64,000 nucleotides of DNA, taken from positions 96,001 to 160,000 of IMG/VR virus record IMGVR_UViG_3300027782_000032; one strand, given 5' to 3'. A model generated the notes under the pieces. The model was not told where the DNA came from and did no database searches. It saw nothing but the letters and a program-made list of their open reading frames with translations. The position numbers were made by a program, and so were the translations under genes. Of this stretch, positions 5,928 through 24,522 are shown piece by piece. The stretch comes from a virus. The first letter of the stretch is position 1, and each line of letters starts with the position of its first letter.

Positions 5928-6755
5928 TTAGAGTGACCCTGGGGGCATGTATGGAAAGTCGGAGTCTGAATCATCATCTTCATCGCCAAACTCTTCGTCT
6001 TCTTCCAACTCCTCGTCAGTAGGGGCTCTGAACACGAAGTTTGCTTCCGATATCAACTCAAGCCTTGGCAGCTTTGGAAATATAATCCTCATAGCTTGCC
6101 TTATCTTTTCAACATCGTTGCATATCTCACAATCATCGGGGTCATTGACTCCTATGTCAACAGTTATCTCCATATAAGAGTCGGATGGATCGGAATCATA
6201 GCCTGAATCCTCCATATCCTGATCTTCATTAAAGGAGTAATCGCTGTCACTGTCTGAGTCACTATCGCTGTCTGAATCGCTATCGTATCCTGGCTCGCCT
6301 TCTCTACCCTTATGATCACCTAGGTCGTAGTCAACATGCCATTCTGAACTCTCAGAATCAGAGTCGCTATCTGAATCGCTGTCTGAGTCAACCTTGTCAT
6401 TACCAAGAATGCCAAGAGCCTCTTCCATCTGGTCGTCTGACATGTAAGGCTTAGTGGAGACGTCTCCACTGGATGGTATAATAGCTGAGCACTGCATAAA
6501 CAGAGGACCTACTGCTCCCTTAGTCTGGGAGTCCTTTACTGTCTTCTCAAAGTACTCTGATAGCTTGTACTTAGACTTGAAGCCTTTCTCATATAGTATC
6601 TTGATGATCTCCATGGAGTCATACACGGCTATAGTTCCGCTAGCTGGAGCTGGCACTACACCAACAAAAGCTCTGTCAAACCCTTTCATGAGCTTGATGT
6701 TAGGGTATAGCTTAGTTATTGCCTCTGCTGTCATGTGGTTTCGCTTATGCTTCAT
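5928..6755 (-). CDS. Conserved phage hypothetical domain plus acidic Ser-Asp repeat tail
   Basis: N-terminal GFDRAFVGV..IAVYD..II..L..EYF..GAVGP resembles a common phage family; two (DS)n tracts; very acidic C-terminus. Confidence 0.65.
   Translation of the reverse strand: MKHKRNHMTAEAITKLYPNIKLMKGFDRAFVGVVPAPASGTIAVYDSMEIIKILYEKGFKSKYKLSEYFEKTVKDSQTKGAVGPLFMQCSAIIPSSGDVSTKPYMSDDQMEEALGILGNDKVDSDSDSDSDSDSESSEWHVDYDLGDHKGREGEPGYDSDSDSDSDSDSDSDYSFNEDQDMEDSGYDSDPSDSYMEITVDIGVNDPDDCEICNDVEKIRQAMRIIFPKLPRLELISEANFVFRAPTDEELEEDEEFGDEDDDSDSDFPYMPPGSL
6235..6395 (-). repeat. Ser-Asp dipeptide repeats (two tracts)
   Basis: DSDSDSDSDSDSES and DSDSDSDSDSDSDSD in the translation. Confidence 0.85.
6454..6469. 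promoter_or_regulatory. Recurrent palindrome GTGGAGACGTCTCCAC, site 1 (in CDS, frame G-D-V-S)
   Basis: AGTGGAGACGTCTCCACT at 6453-6470. Confidence 0.8.
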
Positions 6756-9756: not shown

Positions 9757-10095
9757 CTAGTGTTGTTGTCCCATGTTGAGTTTCATAAGCGTCAACCCAG
9801 CCGCTACTAATAACGAACCTAGGACAACATACTTATTAACATTAAGCCCATAAAATACAAGTGGAACTATGTAATCAATAGATATTACCGAGAACTCCCA
9901 GCAAAGGCTAAACAAAAAGATGCGCTCTTTGTTGTCTACAAACCTGACACCAAGTACCCACAATGTGGATACGAGTAACCCTACCCCTATAGATAGAATA
10001 GGATAATACCAAGCGTTTCTGATTAGGTCGGTGTAGCAGAAGATTAGGGAAGAGGTATAAAGCACCATAACTGCAAGAATGATTAACCATTCCAT
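9757..10095 (-). CDS. Small four-TM membrane protein, SMR/DMT-like
   Basis: 112 aa, four hydrophobic helices, C-terminal LGSLLVAAGLTLM typical of SMR/DMT. Confidence 0.55.
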   Translation of the reverse strand: MEWLIILAVMVLYTSSLIFCYTDLIRNAWYYPILSIGVGLLVSTLWVLGVRFVDNKERIFLFSLCWEFSVISIDYIVPLVFYGLNVNKYVVLGSLLVAAGLTLMKLNMGQQH

Positions 10096-10153
10096 AGTCT
10101 AAGCACCTCAATAAAAGAGTTAACTATAATGGTACCCTATAACTGGCTATGGC

Positions 10154-10194
10154 TGATAGCTAAAAAAAGAGCAGTTTAACGTCCTGCTCAGGAC
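10154..10194 (-). terminator. Cassette A intrinsic terminator with junction motif (T)7AGCTATCA
   Basis: GAGCAG/CTGCTC stem next to A7 and TGATAGCT on the plus strand. Confidence 0.75.
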
Positions 10195-10200
10195 GGGTGG

Positions 10201-10590
10201 TTAGTAAGAAGGAGATTGAACTCTTCTCTCTATTCGTTCCCAAGCACCATCGTGCAAATCAACGTCGTAAGCTGATACAGCGTTGATAATTGCCTTAGAC
10301 AGAGACTTAGAGTCTCTACCGAAGTTGATGTTTATACGATGCTTTGTGACAGCTATTATAACATTCCCTGGTGTTATGACCATTACCTCCCATGGAGCTA
10401 GGTCAACCACCTGTGCCCAAGTATCCGAAAACAGCTTCCATTCTTCCGTCACTACTCTGAGACGTCCTTTGAAGTCGTCAAAGTCATGACTTGGGTTATA
10501 TTCCCCTGCAATTGAAGCCATGTGATTTGCCACCGACTGGAACACGTCGTTTATGTTCGCTTCGTTTAATCCAATGTTCAATATGTACAT
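10201..10590 (-). CDS. Hypothetical protein (cassette A)
   Basis: 129 aa, RBS AAGGAG, own promoter and terminator. Confidence 0.7.
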   Translation of the reverse strand: MYILNIGLNEANINDVFQSVANHMASIAGEYNPSHDFDDFKGRLRVVTEEWKLFSDTWAQVVDLAPWEVMVITPGNVIIAVTKHRININFGRDSKSLSKAIINAVSAYDVDLHDGAWERIERRVQSPSY

Positions 10591-10682
10591 AACTCTATCT
10601 CCTTAAAATATAAACATGCAAACACAGCCAACGAAAAGTTCGTAGGACTGCTCACGTTTTTACAGGTACGTGTAACCACTAT

Positions 10683-10710
10683 ATTATGACGCACTTATGG
10701 GTTGGATTAA
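10683..10710 (-). promoter_or_regulatory. Conserved cassette promoter A, TTAATC-N16-CATAAT
   Basis: Six copies in the window share TWAATY-N12-(G/A)CGT/GTGT-CATAAT at constant spacing. Confidence 0.7.
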
Positions 10711-10726
10711 GTGGAGACGTCTCCAT
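10711..10726. promoter_or_regulatory. Palindrome site 2, abutting the -35-like element of promoter A
   Basis: GTGGAGACGTCTCCAT. Confidence 0.8.
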
Positions 10727-10730
10727 TGGC

Positions 10731-10762
10731 TGATAGCTAAAAAAAAGCAGGATGATCCTGCT
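10731..10762 (-). terminator. Cassette B terminator with junction motif
   Basis: TGATAGCT-A-tract then AGCAGG/CCTGCT stem. Confidence 0.75.
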
Positions 10763-10768
10763 CTCGGG

Positions 10769-11146
10769 TTACCCCTCTTGACCAACGACTCCCCACAGAC
10801 TGAAAGGAGAAATCTCCTTCCACTCGGTAATGTCGTTTGACCGCATGGGCTTCCACCCATTTGCACGGTCCAAGCACATGGTAATGTGCTTGCGGACGTT
10901 CCGACTAGGAACGTCCGTATCGACTTCAACGGCCATTACGCCGTCGAGTCGACCGACACGAACTACTTTTAGTTCGTGTCGTTGACCATTGAGATCCTGT
11001 GCCATACTGTTACATATGGGAAGAAGGTCAACGGTCATATGGTGGCATATGACCTCGAAGTGTTTGGGCACTTCGAGGTTTGCGTGCATCCACGCCACCA
11101 AGATGGATACACTGTCCTTTTCAAGGACGCAAGCCGTGTAGGCCAT
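10769..11146 (-). CDS. 2H phosphoesterase (tRNA-ligase CPD-like), cassette B
   Basis: Two HxT motifs (CHHMTV, KHITM) plus G.KP..SN.I..W; start moved to MAYTAC, which has RBS AGGAG. Confidence 0.7.
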   Translation of the reverse strand: MAYTACVLEKDSVSILVAWMHANLEVPKHFEVICHHMTVDLLPICNSMAQDLNGQRHELKVVRVGRLDGVMAVEVDTDVPSRNVRKHITMCLDRANGWKPMRSNDITEWKEISPFSLWGVVGQEG

Positions 11147-11212
11147 TTTTAGTCTCCTAAAAATAAGACGAGGCGCCATCTATTTGATGACTGGTACCTA
11201 TACTTGCACCTT

Positions 11213-11240
11213 ATTATGACACACTTATGGGTTGGATTAA
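11213..11240 (-). promoter_or_regulatory. Conserved cassette promoter B
   Basis: Identical to promoter A except one base. Confidence 0.7.
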
Positions 11241-11256
11241 GTGGAGACGTCTCCAC
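11241..11256. promoter_or_regulatory. Palindrome site 3, abutting promoter B
   Basis: AGTGGAGACGTCTCCACT at 11240-11257. Confidence 0.8.
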
Positions 11257-11260
11257 TATG

Positions 11261-11305
11261 TGATAGCTAAAAAAAGACCAACAGCATAAAGCTGATGGTC
11301 TTTTT
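11261..11305 (-). terminator. Cassette C terminator (bidirectional-looking) with junction motif
   Basis: AAAAAGACCA-ACAGC-ATAAA-GCTG-A-TGGTCTTTTT. Confidence 0.8.
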
Positions 11306-11320
11306 AGTTTGGTTAAATGA

Positions 11321-12118
11321 CTACTTGCAGGTTCTGCACACTCTGAAGCAAAGTCGTGTACGGTCATCTCTGCCGAACCAGCCTTCTGATTCGGTTGGAA
11401 ACATAGATTTGTCATATCCGCCTGATAGAACTACCACTCTTTTCCATTCTATAGCATCAAGATTAGGCACCTTGATCGTAGTTTCCTTATATTTAGTTAC
11501 TTTATACCTTTTATAACCAAGCTTCTTTCCTGCTCCACCTGCAATACATTTAATCTCCTCTCCTGGCTGAGGGCCCTTAGGGTTATATTTAGGTATTTCA
11601 ATACCAGTAGGTGCTCCAGGGTACTCTTCGCTTACCTCTAAGTTCTCTAGGCCTGGGATCCCTGTAGTGTAGTTGCAGCTGTTAAACCGAGACCACGATT
11701 TACCATTCCAGTGGTGGTAACAATAGCTAGAGTACCCTTCATAGCTATAATCCTGACACCACTCGCCTATGGGGTGACTTCTTCGGGCAGTACCTAAAAC
11801 AGAACGTACCCAGGTAAGCTCCAACTCAGCCTGAGTTGGTAGCCTAAATACTGACTTGTTTATCCTACTTTTATTTAGCCGGGTTATGAACTCCTGGCAA
11901 TCATACCAAGACACGCTGGTTATAGGGTCGTCATGGTTTGCGTTCCAAGGGATAGTCTCAGTAGACCACCACTTTCCAGATTTAGTCCTGTTCATACCCA
12001 GCTCATACCACCTCTTTATAGTTATCATAGGTGATATAGCAAACTCTGATACTATTACTGGGTGTCTATACCATCTATCTATAAAACTTCCTTTAAATCT
12101 AACTAGAGTAGACATCAT
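11321..12118 (-). CDS. FGE-sulfatase (formylglycine-generating enzyme-like) domain protein, cassette C
   Basis: PITSVSWYDCQEF..RLPTQAELE..GEWCQD..GG..FRV; RBS AGGAGG. Confidence 0.75.
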   Translation of the reverse strand: MMSTLVRFKGSFIDRWYRHPVIVSEFAISPMITIKRWYELGMNRTKSGKWWSTETIPWNANHDDPITSVSWYDCQEFITRLNKSRINKSVFRLPTQAELELTWVRSVLGTARRSHPIGEWCQDYSYEGYSSYCYHHWNGKSWSRFNSCNYTTGIPGLENLEVSEEYPGAPTGIEIPKYNPKGPQPGEEIKCIAGGAGKKLGYKRYKVTKYKETTIKVPNLDAIEWKRVVVLSGGYDKSMFPTESEGWFGRDDRTRLCFRVCRTCK

Positions 12119-12191
12119 ACCTCCTGCTTAACAGCGTCAAAGAATAGCTCTCTGACCAGCCCCCGTTTTTACAGGTACGGGTAACCATTAT

Positions 12192-12219
12192 ATTATGACG
12201 CGTTTATAAGACCAATTAA
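12192..12219 (-). promoter_or_regulatory. Conserved cassette promoter C, TTAATT-N16-CATAAT
   Basis: Same consensus; shares a 38-nt leader/-10 block with cassette A. Confidence 0.7.
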
Positions 12220-12238
12220 CATAACGAGATATGATGTG

Positions 12239-12282
12239 TGATAGCTAAAAAAGAAACACACCATGCCCGAAGGCATGATGTG
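12239..12282 (-). terminator. Cassette D terminator with junction motif
   Basis: TGATAGCT-A6 then CATGCC-CGAA-GGCATG stem. Confidence 0.7.
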
Positions 12283-12291
12283 ATCCTTGAA

Positions 12292-12609
12292 TTACGCAAT
12301 CCTTCTTGGGGATTGCTTGATCCACTGCACGACCTCATCCCAGCTCTCGCTGGAGAATTGGTCTTGCTGTGAGTTTGACGACATGTACATACAGCATGAG
12401 TCATCCCAGTCGTTAAGCAACACACAGCTGAACTGCTGCGACTCGGTGTCACAGTCAACCATAACACCGCAGAGTCGCTTAGTACTCTTAATCTGGGCAG
12501 AGCTGCTGCCGTATCCAACCACACGTTTGAACCCTGCTCTACGCAGGGAGTCAGACAGTTTAACGCAGGGCAATAAAGATCTTACTAAAGTAGTCACGAG
12601 AACCTCCAT
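12292..12609 (-). CDS. Hypothetical protein (cassette D)
   Basis: 105 aa between its own promoter and terminator; visibly more GC-rich than the backbone. Confidence 0.6.
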   Translation of the reverse strand: MEVLVTTLVRSLLPCVKLSDSLRRAGFKRVVGYGSSSAQIKSTKRLCGVMVDCDTESQQFSCVLLNDWDDSCCMYMSSNSQQDQFSSESWDEVVQWIKQSPRRIA

Positions 12610-12674
12610 GTAGCTAATAATAACGCAGGCGATGAACTTTAGAGCTCATCTACTAATACCTACGTATACACCTC

Positions 12675-12702
12675 ATTATGACGCACTTATTGGTTGAATT
12701 AA
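12675..12702 (-). promoter_or_regulatory. Conserved cassette promoter D
   Basis: TTAATT-CAACCAATAAGTGCGT-CATAAT on the minus strand. Confidence 0.7.
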
Positions 12703-12828
12703 GTTAAGCTAGGTAAGATGGTTCTTAGCTACAAGTCTTGTAGCCAGGCTACAAAAGCACGTCGCTGGCGACGAAAACGTAACATAAGGTAACGGTCACA
12801 TTATGTTACTTGACAATGAGCTGGTTAC

Positions 12829-12869
12829 TGATAGCTAAAAAAAGAGCAGTTTAACGTCCTGCTCAGGAC
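12829..12869 (-). terminator. Cassette E terminator with junction motif
   Basis: 42 nt identical to the cassette A terminator (10153-10194 = 12828-12869). Confidence 0.8.
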
Positions 12870-12875
12870 AGGTGG

Positions 12876-13244
12876 CTAAGCGACTATGTCGGACCAGCCT
12901 CTCAAGTCTGAACGATGTGAAGAAGACTTAGTGGCTATTGCACACAGTTCTTCTACGTCGTTACCGTTAAGGAAAGCTGAGACAAACTTCACCACTCCCG
13001 TCCATGAGTACAACCTGTACTCATAGTCGGCTGGAACACCGCTCAAACCCAAGCTGTCGACTAGTCTTGGACCGCATAGAAACGTAGTGACTAAATATCT
13101 CCCGTCGTCATCCGCCTCAGCCACCAACGCAGATCTATTGGACTCTACGCTAGGAGCAATTAAAGCAGACGAGTAGCTCCTTGACTTTCTAATCTGGTCT
13201 TTAAAGCCTGGTAAATTAGCGTGTAGTTTCTCAATAATAGTCAT
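12876..13244 (-). CDS. Hypothetical protein (cassette E)
   Basis: Start moved to MTIIEK (RBS AAAGGAG); the longer track start overlaps the promoter. Confidence 0.65.
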   Translation of the reverse strand: MTIIEKLHANLPGFKDQIRKSRSYSSALIAPSVESNRSALVAEADDDGRYLVTTFLCGPRLVDSLGLSGVPADYEYRLYSWTGVVKFVSAFLNGNDVEELCAIATKSSSHRSDLRGWSDIVA

Positions 13245-13337
13245 GGTTATTTCTCCTTTAATGAGGGCTACCACAGCCGGTAAGTACAACAGTGCAAGCG
13301 CTCTTACTGAGCTCCTGAACACTATCGTATTCAACTC

Positions 13338-13365
13338 ATTATGACGCACTTATGGGTTGGATTAA
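13338..13365 (-). promoter_or_regulatory. Conserved cassette promoter E
   Basis: 43-nt promoter+palindrome block identical to cassette A. Confidence 0.7.
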
Positions 13366-13381
13366 GTGGAGACGTCTCCAC
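13366..13381. promoter_or_regulatory. Palindrome site 4, abutting promoter E
   Basis: AGTGGAGACGTCTCCACT at 13365-13382. Confidence 0.8.
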
Positions 13382-13400
13382 TAGCCGTCCTATAAAATAA

Positions 13401-13448: not shown

Positions 13449-13814
13449 TTAAGCCTTGATGCCGCCTATGTCTGTACGCACAATGTCGTGCTCAGATAGC
13501 TCAGACCAATAGATCTCCAAAGCTTCAGTCTCTTCTATAGCTTCGAACTTATGGTTCAAGCCAGGCGGTATCTTAATGCACTCGGTAGGTCTAAGAATGA
13601 TGGTGCTTTTTATAGTACCGTCTGGGTTGTAGCAGCTGACCATCAGCTTACCCGAGACTATATAGAATTGATTCCACTTGTGCTGGTGAAAGTGATTAGA
13701 GCAGTATCCACCTTTGAGAATATGTATGTGGCAGATTTGAAAGGAGTTGTCTAAATGAATGATATGGTTTCGGCCCCATAACTTCTCCTCTTGTCTTACA
13801 GCTAGAACATCCAT
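13449..13814 (-). CDS. Cupin-fold protein (sugar isomerase/epimerase-like)
   Basis: SNHFHQHKWNQFYIVSG ... IPPGLNHKF cupin motifs. Confidence 0.75.
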   Translation of the reverse strand: MDVLAVRQEEKLWGRNHIIHLDNSFQICHIHILKGGYCSNHFHQHKWNQFYIVSGKLMVSCYNPDGTIKSTIILRPTECIKIPPGLNHKFEAIEETEALEIYWSELSEHDIVRTDIGGIKA

Positions 13815-13817
13815 GAG

Positions 13818-14858
13818 TTAACCCTCTATGATCTTCTTCCAAGATGCATTGAATTTGTTACGCTTAATCTTACGTCCAATCTTAGTGTTCTTGTTAAGGT
13901 CTGCTAAGCCATGATTAATAATATCTGCAGCTAAATTAAAGAACCTATTCGCATCAGGCTTAGCAAACACTATACCATTGGTCGATCCGCCCTGATCACA
14001 TGGTACTAATATTCCGTTAGAGCCATCAACTATTATATTTGATATTGGAGGTATGTTATAAGCTATAACAGGAGTACCCATGTACAAAGACTCTATGCCA
14101 ACTAAACCAAACCCTTCAATCTCAGCAGGCCATATGACTAGATCGTGGTTTCCGTACAGCAGCAAGGAGCTTACACATGTGGTTGTGTCTATAATCGGAT
14201 TTATCTGATGGTTCTTTTTAAAGAAGTGCCTTAGTTCTCTAACCACCTCCCAAGACATACACCTAGGGCTGTACGATATAGACAGCTCAGCATGAGGGCA
14301 CAGCTTGTTTACACCAATGGCTACATCAAACAATGCATCCATGTCACATCTAAGGCCTTGGCTAGAGTGCAGAGGTATGAGTACCTTAGGCTTAGAAGTG
14401 TCTACTCCTCCAATGTCTTTCCTGGTAACAGGTATCAAACTGTCCCACTCAACAGTGGATACATTCTTAAGATCAAAGTCCTTCTTTAGAGTCTCTGCAT
14501 TACTAGGGCTTGGAGCTACAGTATGCGCACATAGCTTAAATGACTTCCTACTATAAGCTGGAAGGCAGTCCCAAGGGGCTAGAGCTATTGTTACTATGTT
14601 CTTACCGACCTTGTGTATTAGATCCTTGTCAGGTGGCACAGGCCATATGATGTGAGTAATACCTTTGAGCCACTGCTCGTAGCTCATGACGTCAGGCGTA
14701 ACTACAACCGAATCCCAATCACAGCCGTATGTGTGTCCTCGTTTGAGCTTACTAAACAAAGTAGTCTCATACCCTATAGAACGCAATGAATCAGACAAAC
14801 GCATTGCCGCATATACGGCATCGTGAGGCTTGTACTGAATATCGAATCCTATTCTCAT
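13818..14858 (-). CDS. GT4-like (GT-B) glycosyltransferase
   Basis: WPAEIEGFGLVGIESLYMGTPVIAY...IVDGSNG signature. Confidence 0.85.
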   Translation of the reverse strand: MRIGFDIQYKPHDAVYAAMRLSDSLRSIGYETTLFSKLKRGHTYGCDWDSVVVTPDVMSYEQWLKGITHIIWPVPPDKDLIHKVGKNIVTIALAPWDCLPAYSRKSFKLCAHTVAPSPSNAETLKKDFDLKNVSTVEWDSLIPVTRKDIGGVDTSKPKVLIPLHSSQGLRCDMDALFDVAIGVNKLCPHAELSISYSPRCMSWEVVRELRHFFKKNHQINPIIDTTTCVSSLLLYGNHDLVIWPAEIEGFGLVGIESLYMGTPVIAYNIPPISNIIVDGSNGILVPCDQGGSTNGIVFAKPDANRFFNLAADIINHGLADLNKNTKIGRKIKRNKFNASWKKIIEG

Positions 14859-14868
14859 ACTGGGCCTA

Positions 14869-15495
14869 TCAATTATGCGTGAACAGGTAGCCTTCTACCT
14901 TGGCAGGTTTGAACTCTGGTAAATTTGAAAGGTTCTTTACAAAAAACCAGTCAGCAGCAAAGTCATCGCTGTCCCATTTAACCTTACTGCACAAGCAAGA
15001 GCTTGCTATCCAAGCGCCTCCGTCAATCAAACCTCTCTTTAAAGAAGTATTAACTGGAGACCACAACTTGTGACTATGTACCATGTTGCAGTAAACGAAG
15101 CTAGCCTTATCGGAGTAAGCTTTAGACAGCATCCATTCAAAGTATACAGGAACATACCAGCAGTCTGCATTCATAGTGCATAGCCAGTCGCATCCGTCAT
15201 TGACTGCCTTGTCTAATCCAGGCTGTCTCATGCTATGACCGTGCTTTCCAACCCTAGAAGAAGTACATGATAAGTCAAACCTTGCGTCTTCTCCTATTGC
15301 TAGCTTGCAGTTAGCTAAAGCCTTGGTGTCTAGCCAAGGACCATCGTGTGATATATAAGCTTTGAAGTTGTGATAGGTCTGAGCCTTTAACGCGTATATG
15401 AGGGAAGACAGTGAGTTGGCTTGATTGTACGTAACTAATGATATGCCTATCTTAGCGCTGGCTGGTATGTTTGACTTAGGCTTCCAGTACCTCAT
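14869..15495 (-). CDS. GT2 glycosyltransferase
   Basis: ISLVTYNQ..QTYHNF..ISHDGP..HGHSMR..TMNADCWY. Confidence 0.75.
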   Translation of the reverse strand: MRYWKPKSNIPASAKIGISLVTYNQANSLSSLIYALKAQTYHNFKAYISHDGPWLDTKALANCKLAIGEDARFDLSCTSSRVGKHGHSMRQPGLDKAVNDGCDWLCTMNADCWYVPVYFEWMLSKAYSDKASFVYCNMVHSHKLWSPVNTSLKRGLIDGGAWIASSCLCSKVKWDSDDFAADWFFVKNLSNLPEFKPAKVEGYLFTHN

Positions 15496-16241
15496 GAGTC
15501 TCTCCTCAAATGTCCTTTTCCTGCTCCTTTACCACTAGGCTTTCTAGTAACGCCACGGTAATGAAACACGAAGCTTGAGCAAGCTACTGCACTTGTTATA
15601 CCTAGCTTCTTCCACCTTCCCATTAACTCGTCTTCATTACGAGTCATCTTGTACTTTGGATTGAAGAACAAGCCTGGGCTCATAGCTCCCATCAGCCAAG
15701 TGGTTGCTTTAGCAGCTATGCAGAAACCGTTTAGAGGTGAACTTACAGTTTTGCCTGAATGAAGACGAAGCAACTCAGACGACACCTTTGATATGTAGAC
15801 GTCTGAGTCGCTAACTTTAAACTCTGGGTAGTACTTAATGACGTTTTGGCTAGCTCTGTGGCCCGGCGCATTCGTCGTCGGACCCACTACGCCTGCGCCG
15901 CCTTCTAGAGCCTCTTCGATTCCCAGCATCCAGTTCGGTGGAAACTTCAGGTCTGAGTTCCCCGCTACTATTATCTTGGGGTTTTGGGTCAACGCTAGCT
16001 GTATTCCCTTGTTCCACGACCTTGTCAGGTTCTTGTCGTTCTTCTCGAACCTGTACAGGAGCAGCCGGTGCTTCGGATACTTCTCCCATATGGCAGGATT
16101 CCACAACGGGCTCCCGTCGTCCACAAGTACCGCCAAGCTGTTCGCAGAGCTCGCCAGCAGGCTTTCCACAGCTATCTTCGCATAATCGAACTGATTGTAC
16201 GTCGGTATTACAACAGCCACCAGAGGCTGGAAACGTCTCAA
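15492..16241 (-). CDS. GT2 glycosyltransferase; 5' 392 nt overlap the upstream ORF
   Basis: VVIPTYNQ..LVDDGS..SWNKG..GNSD..VVGP..GFC..FHYRG; TTG start uncertain. Confidence 0.8.
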   Translation of the reverse strand: MRRFQPLVAVVIPTYNQFDYAKIAVESLLASSANSLAVLVDDGSPLWNPAIWEKYPKHRLLLYRFEKNDKNLTRSWNKGIQLALTQNPKIIVAGNSDLKFPPNWMLGIEEALEGGAGVVGPTTNAPGHRASQNVIKYYPEFKVSDSDVYISKVSSELLRLHSGKTVSSPLNGFCIAAKATTWLMGAMSPGLFFNPKYKMTRNEDELMGRWKKLGITSAVACSSFVFHYRGVTRKPSGKGAGKGHLRRDS

Positions 16242-17763
16242 CAGCTACTGGGCTGGCCTCCTCCTCTTTAGCTGACTTAGTTTCAATAGCTTCATCAATT
16301 GAAGGCACATTGTCGATGAAAGTGTCGATTGGATTAAACTCTTGAGGCTCAGGATCAGGTAGTGGAGACGCCTCCAATAGGAGCAGCTCTTTAAGTCCTT
16401 CAAGCTTTGTTGGAGTCAGCTGGTAATCACAAGATGCTAGAATGCACCTTACGTGCCCTCCTTCAACTTCGTCAGAAGGTAAAACTTCTTCTAAAGTAAC
16501 TCCGTAGTTGTCCTTTAGGATACTGTAAGACTTGCTAAGGAAAGCTGAACCTATTGAGTAGTTAGATTGAATGCAGTTGTTTATTACTATCTTAGTTCCT
16601 GGCACGCACAGCCTAAGTATGTGTGCAAAATCAGACGCTATAGTCTCTGGTGACCTGCCGCCATCAATGCTTACTATGGTAACGTTAGGCATGTCAGCGG
16701 TTGCGGTTGGTAGGGTTTCTCTAGTATCACCTTTGATAAGCTGAACTAAGCTAGCACCTGCAGCTGTAATCTTCTGTCTAGCTAAATCCCTGCTTGCTGG
16801 ATCATGCTGGCCCTTTAGGTGCTCCCTTTCTTTAATCTGTTCCGTAGCTTTTTCAAACATGTCAAAACCGTAGAACTCAATGTTAGTCCTACCAAGCCTC
16901 TTAGCTAAAGCTACTAAGGTAGCTGACCTGTCTGCGTTATGTACGCCAATATCGAGTATGCGGTAAGGCTTATTCTTCTTACTTTCGTTAATAGTGGAAT
17001 TAACTGCTAAAGTAAGGTGATCGTATCTGCTCATCTCTGACTCCTTGTTAAAAGGTAACTCTATTCCAGACCTATAATACTTAGATATGTCTTTAGGCTT
17101 TGGAAGCTTAGACAAACCAAGCTCTTTTCTAAACTGTGCATAATCCTCTTGATGCACGTCTCCGCCACATCCCAACAATGGATATAGCGACAATACAGCT
17201 ACGCCTGCCTTCTCTCTAGCTAGCCTCCTAGCTTTATAAGTCCATAGTCTATACTCTCTATAGACTTCTGAAGCAGATAAACCATGAAACTGAATATGCT
17301 GGTCATGCCCGTGATGGTCACCAGCTATATCGCCTAGGTCTACTCCGACTAGAATAACAGATCTAGCACCCATGCGACAGGCTAAATCAATAGCTGTTAG
17401 CTGTATTCCTTTTCCAAGGAACAAAGTATCAGACTTACCACCTATGAACTCCTTCCATTCATAAGAGGTATAAAACACATATATTGACGGGTCATTAAGC
17501 CGTAAAAACGTTGGAGCTTTATGCTTCACTAGCCACTTAGTTGGCTTTACCTTTTTAGCTTTAACAAGCTCTCTATATTCAACCTCAAGCTCTGGATGCA
17601 CAGTTATGCTGTACATAGGTTCAATAAGCTTATAGGCTTGATTAAGACCTATCGTTACTCTTCCTTTAAAGAAATTCTTTGGAAACAACCTAGCTGTAGG
17701 CCCTGTTCCAACCACATATATGTCTGCACCAACGTGCTTCTTAATTAAAGTATTTATTCTCAT
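15850..17763 (-). CDS. DUF115/MptE-like (GT-associated) domain fused to a class I SAM methyltransferase, with an acidic/Cys/Arg-rich tail
   Basis: YVVGTGPT..IGLN..LVGVD (N-terminal); ILDIGVHNA..YGFDMF..IKGDT..IDGG (methyltransferase); internal AAGGAG-N6-ATG at 17034. Confidence 0.65.
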   Translation of the reverse strand: MRINTLIKKHVGADIYVVGTGPTARLFPKNFFKGRVTIGLNQAYKLIEPMYSITVHPELEVEYRELVKAKKVKPTKWLVKHKAPTFLRLNDPSIYVFYTSYEWKEFIGGKSDTLFLGKGIQLTAIDLACRMGARSVILVGVDLGDIAGDHHGHDQHIQFHGLSASEVYREYRLWTYKARRLAREKAGVAVLSLYPLLGCGGDVHQEDYAQFRKELGLSKLPKPKDISKYYRSGIELPFNKESEMSRYDHLTLAVNSTINESKKNKPYRILDIGVHNADRSATLVALAKRLGRTNIEFYGFDMFEKATEQIKEREHLKGQHDPASRDLARQKITAAGASLVQLIKGDTRETLPTATADMPNVTIVSIDGGRSPETIASDFAHILRLCVPGTKIVINNCIQSNYSIGSAFLSKSYSILKDNYGVTLEEVLPSDEVEGGHVRCILASCDYQLTPTKLEGLKELLLLEASPLPDPEPQEFNPIDTFIDNVPSIDEAIETKSAKEEEASPVAVETFPASGGCCNTDVQSVRLCEDSCGKPAGELCEQLGGTCGRREPVVESCHMGEVSEAPAAPVQVREERQEPDKVVEQGNTASVDPKPQDNSSGELRPEVSTELDAGNRRGSRRRRRRSGSDDECAGPQS

Positions 17764-17772
17764 TGATCACCG

Positions 17773-18537
17773 TTAGTCAATAAAGCTTTTTAGATACTTC
17801 TCATAGTATGGATGTAAGCCCTGTTTTGGTCTACTGTCTATTCTAGGAGCTGACCACAGCCTAAGCGCATGTATGAAGTCTCCCCTAAGCACGTCCTTAC
17901 TAGCTATAGCCTTAGCTAGTTCAGACTCCCACATTGCAGCTAAAGAGTGGTCTGGCTTATACCAAGGCTGCTCAGGCTCTTTTGTGTAATGAATAAGTCT
18001 AGTAGTTGACTCTTCATAAGTATTAAGATGGTTCCAATAGTTAGGGATGCTCATTGGCATCTCTTTCATAAAAGTAAGATGCATAAAGTTAGGGTAAGAG
18101 TACCCGTTCTTTAACATATTCCAAAGTTCCTCTGGAATCCAACCACAGGTTTCGCAGTTTATAACCATTACAGATGTGTTAGGCCAAGGGTTCTTAGGGC
18201 TAAACTTGTCAACTTGATAAGTACACGCTACCGACTGAGCACCGGTCATAAGCTTTGAATAGTTCCATAACTCAGCAATATCGCCCAGCACCAGCTGATC
18301 TGCGTCAAGGTATATGGCATGTCCTTCAAATCCGCACGCTGCTGGAATCATAAACCTTCTTAGGCTAAACCCAGTCCCTTGGTGCAAGCCTCTTGGAACT
18401 TGCCAAGAAGGTCCAACCATGGCAGTAATCTCTACAGGCATAGAGCAATGCCTTCGTATAGAATGACCGAGCACGTCAAGCGGTACCTTGGTCTTCTCTT
18501 CAGTGCCTACAAATATACGTATCGTTTCTTCTGTCAT
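17773..18537 (-). CDS. GT8-like glycosyltransferase
   Basis: IRIFVG..HSI..GTGFSLRRF.IP..AIYLDADQ..DIAELW..SVMVIN..WNHL..LIHYT. Confidence 0.8.
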   Translation of the reverse strand: MTEETIRIFVGTEEKTKVPLDVLGHSIRRHCSMPVEITAMVGPSWQVPRGLHQGTGFSLRRFMIPAACGFEGHAIYLDADQLVLGDIAELWNYSKLMTGAQSVACTYQVDKFSPKNPWPNTSVMVINCETCGWIPEELWNMLKNGYSYPNFMHLTFMKEMPMSIPNYWNHLNTYEESTTRLIHYTKEPEQPWYKPDHSLAAMWESELAKAIASKDVLRGDFIHALRLWSAPRIDSRPKQGLHPYYEKYLKSFID

Positions 18538-18606
18538 AGCTTGTTCCTTAGTCCAGCAAAGTTAACTTAGCGAGCTCCTTAGTTAACGCAAACGCGTTTC
18601 CGTGAA

Positions 18607-19221
18607 CTAAGGAACTTTGAATAAAGGTTTTACACTAACTCCAAAGGTTTTGGAAGCCAACTTAAACTCATTGTACTGTCCTTTAAATGAAGTCCTTCCG
18701 TTGGCAAGCCTAGACTCCTCATTAAATGCCTTAGAGTATTCAGTACCCTCGTCTACTCCAAGCGTAAATATTTCTTTTACTCCTGAGCTGGCTAACAGGT
18801 TTACAGCGGCGACAGCGCTAAACAGCTTTACCCTAACCACTGGACCTGACTGTATCATAAGCTTGCTAGATCTAGAGCTGTTGTACCACAACACCGGAAC
18901 ATTTACGCTCAAACTCTTATCAGAGAACAAGTTTAGAGCTGTTTTACCACAAGGCACAAAGTTAACGTGAGGCTCCCAAGGTGTTACAATATGTTGGCAA
19001 AGGTTATCGCTTACCGACGTTTTGATTACGTCAAAATCAATAACATGACCTAGCAGGCATGGTATCTTAAACATGACATGGTTTAAACCAACCACGTGGT
19101 AAGAGTCTAAATCTATATCTGCAACCCTATCAAATGATGGGCCTTTGCCTACTATCAACCAAGGCTTGTAAAACAGATTAGACTTAAACCAATCAAAGAA
19201 ACTGATTAGGTTTAAGGTCAC
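18607..19221 (-). CDS. DUF115/GT29-like glycosylation-associated protein
   Basis: WLIVGKGPS..VGLN..TLGVD, parallel to the N-domain of 15850-17763. Confidence 0.55.
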   Translation of the reverse strand: MTLNLISFFDWFKSNLFYKPWLIVGKGPSFDRVADIDLDSYHVVGLNHVMFKIPCLLGHVIDFDVIKTSVSDNLCQHIVTPWEPHVNFVPCGKTALNLFSDKSLSVNVPVLWYNSSRSSKLMIQSGPVVRVKLFSAVAAVNLLASSGVKEIFTLGVDEGTEYSKAFNEESRLANGRTSFKGQYNEFKLASKTFGVSVKPLFKVP

Positions 19222-19985
19222 AGATTGTTACCATTAACTAAAACATCTAAATAGGTACCAGGGCTCTCTACAAGCTTCTTAAGCATCTTGGCTTCTGAAG
19301 CCTCATGGTCTTCTATACGAATGTAATGATCGCACATACCTGATACTGCTAGTCTTGTTAACTTAGGAAACCTGCTACCTGCTCCGTGGTGGTAAAACAT
19401 ATGGCCGTATACAGCACCCAGCAGCGGGTGGTAGTTAACCTTGTTTGTCCTTATCAAAGGTACAATCTTATTCATGAAAGGAACTAGTCCTGTACCAACG
19501 TCGCTTACTTCCTTACCAAGCATATTAAACGTAGACTTTGGATCGAAGCTTGCATCAGAATCAAAGAACTCTTTACTAGCAAAGAAAACGCAAGGGTGAG
19601 GAAACACGTCAAAGTTCTCAAACCTTACTACTGCAGCAGCTATCCTATTCTTCATCTCTAGCATTCTCTTGCATATAGGGAACCAGTCAGCCCTAAATGG
19701 AAAGGCATCGCTGTCTAGTAACAGCAGCCACTTATAGTCGCTCTCTTTAAACGCTTTTACTATTGGCTTGAGGCCGTCAGCATGTCCCTTGTTATTTTTA
19801 AATGAAGCTATTACTTTGTAACCCTTTTCAACCCATGGCTCTTCCATGGCAGCGTTTAGCACTACGTGCTTATCCATCTTAACGCCTATAGACCTGTTTA
19901 AAAAGAATGACTGTAGGTTTGACCAAGCTTCGTTCCTGTTAGAAGTAGAGGCAACGGTCGCCATCATAACGCTATCTTCGTTCAT
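19218..19985 (-). CDS. GT-A fold glycosyltransferase-like protein
   Basis: LLLLDSDAFP DxD; PHPCVFF; FYHHGAGSR. Confidence 0.6.
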   Translation of the reverse strand: MNEDSVMMATVASTSNRNEAWSNLQSFFLNRSIGVKMDKHVVLNAAMEEPWVEKGYKVIASFKNNKGHADGLKPIVKAFKESDYKWLLLLDSDAFPFRADWFPICKRMLEMKNRIAAAVVRFENFDVFPHPCVFFASKEFFDSDASFDPKSTFNMLGKEVSDVGTGLVPFMNKIVPLIRTNKVNYHPLLGAVYGHMFYHHGAGSRFPKLTRLAVSGMCDHYIRIEDHEASEAKMLKKLVESPGTYLDVLVNGNNL

Positions 19986-23316: not shown

Positions 23317-23454
23317 ATGATATCTTACGAAGAAGTAGATATATATAAGTTTTTTAGCCTACTGCTTATCGTAGCGGCTGTCTACCTATTAGCTCTAGGT
23401 ATACCTATTATACTTGATATCTTATTGTCAGATCCTTTTGACGACCATAGCTGA
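23317..23454 (+). CDS. 45-aa single-TM small protein (below the ORF-track cutoff)
   Basis: MISYEEVDIYKFFSLLLIVAAVYLLALGIPIILDILLSDPFDDHS; AAGGA upstream; its TGA stop is the first triplet of the junction motif. Confidence 0.4.
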   Translation: MISYEEVDIYKFFSLLLIVAAVYLLALGIPIILDILLSDPFDDHS

Positions 23455-23501
23455 TAGCTAAAAAAAACAATCCGACGCCCTCCTAAGAGGGAATCGGATT
23501 G
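23452..23501 (-). terminator. Cassette F terminator with junction motif
   Basis: TGATAGCT-A-tract then CAATCCGA..CCCTC-CTAA-GAGGG..TCGGATTG. Confidence 0.8.
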
Positions 23502-23507
23502 TGAGTT

Positions 23508-24158
23508 TTACTTGGTGACAGACTGCCGTGGCAGCCTTACCCTATTAGGCTGGAAGAACTTGTACAGCTCCTCCAGACCAAGTCCGGCAGCCTCCAAGGA
23601 GGACCTGGTAACCACCTGAGGCTTTGGTAAGCCGTCTTGATCTACGAGTCCGTCTACGCACTCGTATATTCTAGCTGGCTCAGCTAAAACCGAATCCTCC
23701 AAAATGGCGCATGGCGCCATTCTGTATGGCGCCATCAACTTGATGGAGCCAAGAAGCGCAGCCTCTAGGGCCTCTGGAGCTTCCGCACCAGAAGCTATAG
23801 AAAGAGACTCAAGACTGACGTCGTCCGAAGACGACATCATTCCGTAACCAATTGGAAGTGCAACTGCCTGAGGGATTAGATCGCCCGTATCGAACCGGTC
23901 CAAAGCCCGGTCGAACGCCCTCCTGTTGGAGGGGGATCTTTTGCAGAAAGGCCTAAAGGCCTTTCCCAGAGGATCGATTGCTTGCCTAGCCACGTACCCG
24001 TAAGGGTACGCCTTAGCCCTGGAAAACACGCCAACTACCCCGTTAGGGTAGCCGACAATAACGCCTGTTTGCCCTACAGGCAAAAAGGATTCTTTAAACC
24101 CCTCCTCCCATGCCGATGGAGTTATGGTGATTAGAGCCAAGTCCTTTAGCTGAGACAT
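23508..24158 (-). CDS. Hypothetical protein (cassette F, gene 2)
   Basis: 216 aa; visibly GC-rich; RBS AAGGAG. Confidence 0.65.
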   Translation of the reverse strand: MSQLKDLALITITPSAWEEGFKESFLPVGQTGVIVGYPNGVVGVFSRAKAYPYGYVARQAIDPLGKAFRPFCKRSPSNRRAFDRALDRFDTGDLIPQAVALPIGYGMMSSSDDVSLESLSIASGAEAPEALEAALLGSIKLMAPYRMAPCAILEDSVLAEPARIYECVDGLVDQDGLPKPQVVTRSSLEAAGLGLEELYKFFQPNRVRLPRQSVTK

Positions 24159-24176
24159 GCAGATACTCCTTGAAAA

Positions 24177-24458
24177 TTACTTCTTCTTTACCCATAGAAT
24201 ACTGTCCTTCGGGACAGTAAGCTGGGGCCTTGGGGCCCCTTTAGTATCGGGTCTCAGTGTGCAGGCCACTTGGCCATCACTCTGAGCCCTTCGTCGGACC
24301 ACTTCTCTGAGTGATCCTCCGTATTGGACATGTGGCCTGTAACCAGGGCCAGCACCGTCCTGGGATACCTTCCCATTTTTACCCTTTGAAAAGTTGACCC
24401 ATAAAAGGGCCACTACAAAGGAGGTCAACACAAGGCCTGCCACCGTGTTTTCAAACAT
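24177..24458 (-). CDS. Small membrane-anchored protein (cassette F, gene 1)
   Basis: N-terminal TM (VAGLVLTSFVVALLWV); start moved to MFENT (AAGGGG upstream). Confidence 0.55.
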   Translation of the reverse strand: MFENTVAGLVLTSFVVALLWVNFSKGKNGKVSQDGAGPGYRPHVQYGGSLREVVRRRAQSDGQVACTLRPDTKGAPRPQLTVPKDSILWVKKK

Positions 24459-24494
24459 GGCCGCCCCTTTCTGCCACCCATAAGGTAGCACTAT

Positions 24495-24522
24495 ATTATG
24501 ACGCGTTTAAGAGCTGGATTTA
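24495..24522 (-). promoter_or_regulatory. Conserved cassette promoter F, TAAATC-N16-CATAAT
   Basis: Same spacing and GCGTCATAAT as promoters A, C, D and E. Confidence 0.7.

Follow-up and report, generated by a model that had tools for sequence, protein, structure and literature searches.

The array described here lies in 64,000 nucleotides of viral DNA, positions 96,001-160,000 of the IMG/VR record IMGVR_UViG_3300027782_000032 (this whole stretch is called the window, and coordinates are those of the window unless marked as genome positions). It consists of five tandem cassettes on the minus strand, running from 13380 to 10154 in the order E, D, C, B, A, and each of them comprises a promoter, a leader of 60-110 nt with a strong Shine-Dalgarno (SD) sequence, a single open reading frame (ORF), which we call the cargo, and a terminator in which a hairpin is followed by 6-8 T residues and the tail AGCTATCA. 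The array is bounded by a cupin gene and by a membrane-protein gene (fam11), both conserved. From its upstream to its downstream flank, the locus reads as follows:

13449..13814, minus strand: cupin-domain gene of the upstream flank (Pfam Cupin_2, 6.5e-07); the array starts directly past its stop codon
13338..13380, minus strand: palindrome and promoter of cassette E; the 14-nt palindrome TGGAGACGTCTCCA abuts the promoter TTAATCCAACCCATAAGTGCGTCATAAT, predicted start G at 13332
13245..13337, minus strand: leader of cassette E, with the SD in AAAGGAGAAATAACC-ATG
12876..13244, minus strand: cargo E, 122 aa, no assigned family
12829..12870, minus strand: terminator E (A/E type), GTCCTGAGCAGGACGTTAAACTGCTC, T7 and AGCTATCA; weak hairpin
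12703..12828, minus strand: spacer of 126 nt from the E tail to the D promoter, missing along with E in the relative G002
12675..12702, minus strand: promoter of cassette D, TTAATTCAACCAATAAGTGCGTCATAAT, predicted start G at 12669
12292..12597, minus strand: cargo D, ~101 aa, cysteine-rich and GC-rich
12239..12288, minus strand: terminator D, strong hairpin, T6 and AGCTATCA (-22.7 kcal/mol, z = -7.6)
12119..12219, minus strand: promoter (12192-12219, predicted start G at 12186) and leader of cassette C, with a leader block common to A
11321..12118, minus strand: cargo C, 265 aa, FGE-sulfatase-like domain (Pfam PF03781, 1.3e-06)
11261..11305, minus strand: terminator C, hairpin, T7 and AGCTATCA (-18.9 kcal/mol, z = -6.4)
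11213..11254, minus strand: palindrome and promoter of cassette B, one mismatch to A/E, predicted start G at 11207
10769..11146, minus strand: cargo B, 125 aa, predicted minimal 2H phosphoesterase (motifs, structure model; GC 51.6%)
10731..10765, minus strand: terminator B, hairpin, T8 and AGCTATCA (-18 kcal/mol, z = -4.4)
10591..10724, minus strand: palindrome (10713-10724), promoter (10683-10710, predicted start G at 10677) and leader of cassette A
10201..10590, minus strand: cargo A, 129 aa, no assigned family
10154..10195, minus strand: terminator A (A/E type) with its tail; end of the array
9757..10095, minus strand: 112-aa membrane protein (fam11) of the downstream flank, found after the array in all relatives reaching that far

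The initial annotation of this DNA had placed five minus-strand promoters of the form TWAATY-N16-CATAAT at 10683, 11213, 12192, 12675 and 13338, and T-runs followed by AGCTATCA at 10154, 10731, 11261, 12239 and 12829, and all ten positions were verified. The promoter pattern finds 7 matches in the window at one mismatch or fewer, against 2.04 ± 1.48 in shuffled sequence, and the six exact matches are on the minus strand every one. The regulatory parts are shared between cassettes much as had been proposed: the 42-nt core of the terminators of A and E is identical (96% identity over 51 nt), and the 43-nt block of promoter and palindrome is the same in A and E and differs by one mismatch in B; the leaders of A and C are indeed shared, but not as the 38-nt block claimed for them, the likeness being looser (91% over 44 nt, 77% over 78 nt). 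The cargo proteins, as also stated there, are mutually unrelated, and cargos B and D are GC-rich outliers (51.6% and 49.7% GC, genome mean 42.5 ± 3.6%; GC3 z of 2.6 and 2.8, respectively, and a GC z of 2.5 for B). For cargo D, the ATG at 12609 overlaps the SD GGAGG, and a GTG at 12597 is the likelier start. The hairpins in the terminators of B, C and D are strong (-18 to -23 kcal/mol, z = -4.4 to -7.6), while the A/E type, at -9.4 kcal/mol, is weak and faces a competing fold. This type (10160-10210 and 12835-12885) is the most widespread as well as the weakest, and its second hairpin, GTCCTGAGCAGGAC, begins ~8 nt past the stop codon and competes with the terminator stem, so that termination of A and E could depend on translation of the cargo.

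Neither the promoter nor the tailed terminator is confined to the array. The window has a sixth promoter at 24495 and a sixth tailed terminator at 23452, and the whole genome (a 190,371-bp contig with 42.6% GC) has 10 promoters and 9 tailed terminators, all on the coding strand, which sit in four islands at genome positions ~74-76 kb (island I), 106-109 kb (the array), 119-120 kb (island II) and 183 kb (island IV). The second of these to fall within the window is:

23452..24522, minus strand: island II, in which a promoter (24495-24522) and a tailed terminator (23452-23490) enclose two genes conserved in relatives

Island II, which brackets conserved genes, shows the motifs to be the phage's regular punctuation for one class of genes. 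The coding strand likewise carries every one of the 24 tailed terminators and 24 promoters of five related viral contigs, and the reversed control patterns gave 0 matches. A logo built from 58 distinct copies reads C-TTAAT-tca.cc.atAA..G-c-GTCATAAT-N4-TG, with GTCATAAT and the downstream TG conserved at 98-100%; the promoter consensus is C-TTAAT-N13-GcGTCATAAT-N4-TG, with an invariant C at -12 and a spacer of 16-17 nt between the two blocks, and a generic sigma70 scan does not pick up the array promoters. For the tail, the logo gives AGCTAT(C/T)A and then a weaker g.ca. The tail and the next -35 are either 7-9 nt (n = 18) or 19-20 nt (n = 22) apart, both classes being tight, which indicates that terminator, tail, spacer and promoter make up one composite junction. 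About five convincing intrinsic terminators elsewhere in the genome carry no tail, so the tail belongs specifically with this promoter class.

Some features of the other islands are worth recording. The cassettes of island I encode a conserved lipoprotein of 54-59 aa, fast-evolving membrane proteins and tiny hydrophobic peptides. Island I also holds, at genome positions 75240-76013 on the minus strand (L169:3240-4013), a 257-aa gene resembling HNH-type homing endonucleases (phrog_3377, 6.5e-45) with C-terminal helix-turn-helix (HTH) modules, which begins 13 nt past a tailed terminator, has no promoter of its own and keeps this position in four genomes (60-85% identity). A weak resolvase-type HTH match had raised the idea that this gene encodes a recombinase, and this was rejected in view of its HNH-endonuclease-like match to phrog_3377. 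In island IV (genome 183409-183439, minus strand) a promoter of the class is followed, right past its TG, by TATAGCTATAGCTATCA, which is the tail motif without hairpin or T-run, and then by a long hairpin and, ~80 nt downstream, a T-run with AGCTATT; the equivalent site of the relative G001 has T5-AGCTATTA 77 nt past the promoter. This arrangement may be a leader attenuator.

Relatives of the locus were found with the upstream glycosyltransferase as query, which gave seven related contigs at 52-94% protein identity, and with cargo homologues and the A/E terminator as probes; a search of viral contigs with the 781-aa downstream gene yielded no relatives. All of the relatives are metagenome assemblies, and several of their contigs end within the array. 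In all of them the flanks are collinear (sugar-modification cluster, GT4 glycosyltransferase, cupin gene, array, fam11-fam15), the cupin gene adjoining the GT4 gene throughout. The array between these flanks varies. Across 24 loci it holds 2-11 cassettes, 75 in total, whose ORFs of at least 40 aa fall into 32 cargo families, including 13 singletons. Terminators of the A/E type are found on 17 cargo families and those of the D type on 3, and about six leader families, built of a 5' hairpin followed by a small hairpin with the SD, are common to different cargos. The order of the cargos is inconsistent between loci in three ways: F11 comes before E, E before F9 and F9 before F11; D before B, B before F4 and F4 before D; and D before X, X before F4 and F4 before D. 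These three cycles rest on solid homologies, a further one through F3 having been discarded, its link spanning 17 aa only. A single conserved order of the shared cargos had been an early reading, and was overturned by this larger census. Comparison with relatives had been one of the checks put forward in the initial annotation, and its outcome is that neither gene content nor gene order is fixed.

Regulatory blocks can be better conserved than the genes beside them. Thus, the A/E terminator and its counterpart in L145, a contig with a flanking glycosyltransferase only 52% identical, show 100% identity over 40 nt, and the promoter and leader of E are 88% identical over 135 nt to those of an island-I cassette (genome ~75.2 kb) that drives an unrelated 164-aa membrane protein. 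Homologous cassettes without a convincing ORF occur at L144:11400-11905, L146:11730-12240 and L142:3155-3700; they hold 2-4 internal copies of a hairpin with GTTAAACTGC, whose stem co-varies (CTG/CAG, CAT/ATG, TTA/TAA). The internal copies of the A/E hairpin with GTTAAACTGC in the relatives have no T-run, and may be fossil terminators, or else a small RNA with repeated hairpins.

The positions at which homology begins and ends are informative. In G002, the closest relative, which lacks cassette E together with the spacer, the joint lies inside ACTTAAT at the -35, with E-type sequence to its left and D-type sequence to its right. Past D's AGCTATCA, the same contig has a palindrome and an A-type promoter in place of the C junction, and the promoter and leader of its second cassette are 97% identical to those of the window's A over 133 nt, until ~7 nt before the ATG, beyond which the cargo differs. 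In L166 and L167 the C-type promoter and leader are conserved to 12135, 17 nt before C's ATG, after which a 247-aa cargo substitutes for C, the C terminator and the entire cassette B, homology returning at the terminator before A; these cargo swaps start 7-17 nt before the ATG. L166 also has two additional cassettes before E, and there homology begins at the -35. Finally, a cassette of L177 is 94% identical to B over 545 nt and has different neighbours. Identity is 100% over the stretch that begins at GTCATAAT and takes in the first ~230 nt of the gene; upstream of the -10 both spacer and junction differ (the palindrome is present in the window, not in L177), and the homology to B stops exactly at the tail. 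With breakpoints at the -35, the -10, the ribosome-binding site (RBS) or ATG, and the T-run with its tail, crossovers would occur at each short, universally conserved motif rather than at any single site. The initial annotation had named the shared blocks or the AGCTATCA junction as crossover points; breakpoints do lie at motifs, among which AGCTATCA is only one of several.

The phage that carries the array encodes a family A DNA polymerase only ~25% identical to that of any phage in the collection searched, and an RNA polymerase (RNAP) beta subunit by which its nearest cultured phages are Salmonella phage Arash (35%) and the Vibrio phages D69, D148 and D181. The particles of Arash contain a sigma factor as well as RNAP subunits (PMC10585845). 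Arash does not have the promoter motif, with 5 one-mismatch matches against 8 in the reversed control, and is therefore of no use as a direct test bed. The phage with the array is found in metagenomes from freshwater and lakes; neither the locus nor the RNAP gene gave a match when searched as DNA against the phage collection, and Rfam holds no known RNA family matching the window or three relatives. A UvsX-like recombinase is encoded within the window. Tyrosine and serine recombinases (PF00589, PF00239) had no match in the 92%-complete genome, with positive controls, and the proposal of an integrase-independent system therefore holds within these detection limits.

Taken together, we consider with good confidence that the locus is a hyperplastic accessory-gene region of the PeSL type, in which units are gained, lost, replaced and reordered through recombination at shared control motifs. 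PeSLs, for promoter-early stem-loop, are the mobile regulatory cassettes of T4-like phages (Arbiol et al. 2010, PMC2839356; Comeau et al. 2014, PMC4122927). Each accessory gene would be an autonomous unit with a lineage-specific promoter, a modular leader and an intrinsic terminator with a fixed tail, and a composite junction like that of the PeSL elements would be made up of the terminator with its tail, the following promoter and the 7-9 or 19-20 nt between them. Recombination of a general kind, homologous or by microhomology, both intragenomic and between co-infecting relatives, would then cross over at the -35, the -10, the SD/ATG or the T-run and tail, with CTTAAT, GTCATAAT or TTTTTTTAGCTATCA as the joint sites; crossovers are placed there since the same short motifs flank every unit. 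As a result, whole units or cargos would be deleted, inserted, replaced or reordered without a site-specific recombinase.

The analogy with PeSLs, which the initial annotation had drawn, fits feature by feature. In both systems a composite stem-loop terminator stands directly upstream of a promoter, which is followed by an SD and a start codon, the SD being part of the element; in the present phage the leader and SD modules are common to unrelated cargos. In both, the elements cluster in hyperplastic regions between conserved genes and flank ORFans, the breakpoints of insertions, deletions and replacements lie within the elements, degraded copies exist (the fossil terminators of the relatives match the "degraded PeSLs" of PMC4122927), and there is no dedicated recombinase. 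The differences are as follows: (i) the phage has a family A DNA polymerase and its own multisubunit RNAP and belongs to an Arash-like lineage; it is not a T4-like myovirus, and the locus works like a PeSL system without being a member of the T4 set. (ii) The promoter, with its C at -12, fixed GcGT upstream of the -10 and fixed TG after it, does not appear to be near the sigma70 type (TTGACA-N17-TATAAT). (iii) The T-run is followed by an invariant 8-nt tail. (iv) The leaders are long (60-110 nt) and modular, and a palindrome that recurs throughout the genome is fused to a subset of the promoters. (v) Mini-circles have been demonstrated for PeSLs by inverse PCR (PMC2839356, PMC4122927), whereas the present system is known from assembled contigs alone.

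The integron analogy, also raised in the initial annotation, fails. Tandem single-gene units, a conserved 3' element, a large and mostly unknown cargo pool and a variable length are common to both, but here there is no IntI, each cassette has its own promoter where integrons rely on a common Pc, and crossovers lie at several motifs. Nor is there an attC structure with paired core sites; only one type of terminator has GTTAAAC, and no inverse core accompanies it. Morons, for their part, are usually scattered singletons with unrelated host-type signals. The cassettes resemble them as single genes with their own promoter and terminator between conserved genes, variably present and in two cases (B and D) deviant in GC; they differ in forming up to 11 tandem units that share one standardised set of signals, which is also recombination homology. 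Such morons were reportedly described in lambdoid and other phages by Juhala et al. 2000 and Hendrix et al.

Could the cassettes nevertheless be ordinary morons, gained and lost in unrelated illegitimate events, with motifs that serve as regulatory signals only, repeats that play no mechanistic part, and selection that mimics breakpoints at motifs? The same promoter and tailed terminator enclose stable, conserved genes in islands I, II and IV, so the motifs alone do not cause variability, and the islands occupy the same few positions in all relatives, without new insertion sites. We nevertheless regard this explanation as unlikely, given the hybrid junctions inside shared motifs (E-type left and D-type right in one promoter; the 100% block from GTCATAAT) and the near-identical regulatory blocks of 40-135 nt attached to unrelated cargos beside flanking proteins that are 52-68% identical, which independent illegitimate events would not yield. 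A dedicated system, in which a phage nuclease or recombinase recognises AGCTAT(C/T)A, the hairpin with GTTAAAC, or the palindrome and cuts or exchanges at that point in the manner of integrons or homing systems, would account for a tail that is invariant while the hairpins diverge and for the two breakpoints located exactly at it, and a candidate enzyme is at hand in the HNH-endonuclease-like gene of island I, conserved 13 nt behind a tail in four genomes; moreover, the GTTAAAC of the A/E terminator fits the integron core GTTRRRY. This seems very improbable to us: the other breakpoints are at the -35, -10 and RBS rather than at the tail, no integrase or resolvase was found, cassettes with their own promoters are unlike those of integrons, chance gives a GTTRRRY 7-mer in 42 nt at the few-percent level, the present one having no inverse core site before it, and a tail present 9 times in the phage's own genome would be awkward for a self-cutting nuclease.

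The variation could also be chimerism, repeats of 30-50 nt having mis-joined the cassettes of different strains during assembly. The relatives are all metagenomic, and the contigs of several of them (L141, L143, L144, L145 and G001 end in or beside the cassette array), like the Logan contigs, break exactly at repeats, from which it follows that such arrays are systematically under-assembled in short-read metagenomes. However, identical arrangements were obtained from independent samples and with different assemblers (L166 = L167 = L165; L174 = L176; L177 = L180/L184/L186), most cargo families are absent from the other genomes, an absence that mis-joining cannot create, and the window's own gene order is held by 97% of the sampled words in one run and by 74-77% in two others. 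We therefore give this explanation hardly any weight.

Recombination at shared control motifs remains the reading that we favour, and the following points weigh against it: (i) contigs that end inside the array leave the arrays of some relatives incomplete and make mis-joins at repeats possible. (ii) Breakpoints at the borders of units could partly reflect selection for working units, without targeted recombination. (iii) The conservation of the tail at stable, non-variable islands argues for a direct function beyond homology. (iv) No recombination intermediates were seen in the assembled contigs. In one DNA run a contig of depth 2.8 (10692-11221) joins 11221 to 10692, that is, the B leader to the B terminator junction, over a 34-nt repeat; it could be a circle, a tandem duplication or an artefact of assembly at k=31; it is the only such junction, and is not reliable. 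(v) A sigma factor is not confirmed in the genome: PF04542 gave no candidates, gp196 of Arash has no homologue, and the ORFs considered as candidate sigma genes had no Pfam, PHROG or PDB match. Hence, we make no claim as to which polymerase or sigma factor reads the promoters. (vi) The timing of expression is presumed, the cargos having been taken in the initial annotation for putative early genes with roles in host takeover or anti-defence.

Expression of the cassettes was approached through a lake metatranscriptome library, whose contigs, at 99-100% identity, cover A (10197-10649), B (10758-11182), part of C, D (12285-12655) and E (12942-13320). The initial annotation had expected transcripts to start and end at the motifs. 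Each of these contigs lies inside one cassette, which is compatible with the predicted ends and falls short of proving them; since the RNA data consist of contigs, ends, strand and level are not established by them. No RNA contig covers the flanking genes or the junctions, and the uncovered part is not counted as evidence on transcript ends or on relative expression. Most loose contig ends are cross-matches to islands I and II or to other copies of the palindrome, not new junctions.

Only one of the five cargos, B, has a recognisable fold. Its motifs H35-H36-x-T38 (HHxT) and H87-x-T89 (HxT) are invariant in 12 homologues, and its structure model (pLDDT 96.9) matches the CNPase/CPDase fold with a probability of 1.00. 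The best structural matches are CNPase and the CPD domains of RNA ligases (TMq 0.65-0.74), the match to the Acb1 anti-CBASS proteins being weaker (TMq 0.45-0.54); similarly, a viral structure library places RNA-ligase CPD domains first and Acb1 next. At the level of sequence, cargo B had no family match and a profile search of the PDB was empty, and one of its homologues carries PF08302. By its motifs and fold, cargo B is a minimal member of the 2H phosphoesterase superfamily. It resembles Acb1 and the viral 2H phosphoesterases in its fold, its two invariant HxT motifs and its being a small stand-alone phage protein, and differs from Acb1 in lying structurally nearer to CNPase and the RNA-ligase CPD domains; both RNA-end repair and degradation of an immune signal are candidate roles. 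Homologues of B also serve as cargo in unrelated phages, in small-gene arrays that belong to at least two lineages and have junction repeats particular to each. One of these is an unrelated phage contig with 57% GC (L161:562-3188), in whose array TA-CCAACTAGG and then a GC-rich hairpin close nearly every gene; this junction repeat is a different one, specific to that lineage. To judge from their composition, cargos B and D are probably foreign, and for B the homologues in the arrays of unrelated phages point the same way. Cargo D is the most widespread cargo (6 loci), and no family was found for it, or for A or E. Cargo A has one cluster of homologues (89% identity) in L165-L167, cargo C has an orthologue at the contig end of L143, and cargo E has 7 homologues, all at the same locus in relatives; the model of E (pLDDT 82) had no fold match.

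Two further elements accompany the locus. The palindrome (A)GTGGAGACGTCTCCAC(T) has ~26 copies in the genome, roughly every 4-10 kb and mostly within ORFs, those in the window lying at 6456, 10713, 11243, 13368, 16364, 22556, 29966, 45076, 52886 and 62094, and copies are held at syntenic positions in relatives. Three copies stand directly upstream of the -35 of A, B and E, a fusion also seen in the arrays of relatives; the B cassette of L177 has no palindrome, which marks it as a separable module. Upstream of the array (13818-19985) lies a conserved sugar-modification cluster with GT4, GT2 and a sialyltransferase-like protein, to which the relatives add MptE-like and methyltransferase genes, and which suggests glycosylation of the virion or of the DNA.

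The tail deserves separate consideration. It stays fixed while the hairpins diverge, stable islands included, in relatives at 50-65% protein identity, which argues that it is under selection in its own right, and it is located beyond the usual release point of a terminator. It could act as DNA on the transcribing enzyme, be part of the upstream region of the next promoter, or provide a universal 15-nt crossover homology. Tentatively, and with more doubt than conviction, we put forward that promoter and tailed terminator serve as a private punctuation, which no enzyme reads except the phage's own RNA polymerase, zinc-free and probably delivered with the virion. AGCTAT(C/T)A would then be a sequence-specific signal for termination or release, and the invariant 15 nt of T-run and tail would double as the universal crossover site. 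If this were true, the tailed terminator would belong to a class of elements not described for bacterial-type polymerases, and the cassettes would be plug-and-play genes whose expression does not require the host enzyme. One promoter class is strictly paired with one tail, and the polymerase of this phage is said to be without the zinc domain that takes part in termination, a combination that offers a concrete and testable lead on how such an enzyme stops.

Our results would extend the PeSL idea, in which standardised regulatory junctions double as portable homology for the swapping of accessory genes, beyond the T4-like phages and into a large freshwater lineage that is uncultured and has an RNA polymerase of its own. 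The array is an unusually clean case: it has a single promoter class and a single tail, its units number up to 11, and 17 cargo families have the 42-nt terminator in common. It may also serve as a positional signpost to accessory genes and candidate counter-defence genes, of which it has so far yielded 32 families, one of them a predicted 2H phosphoesterase.

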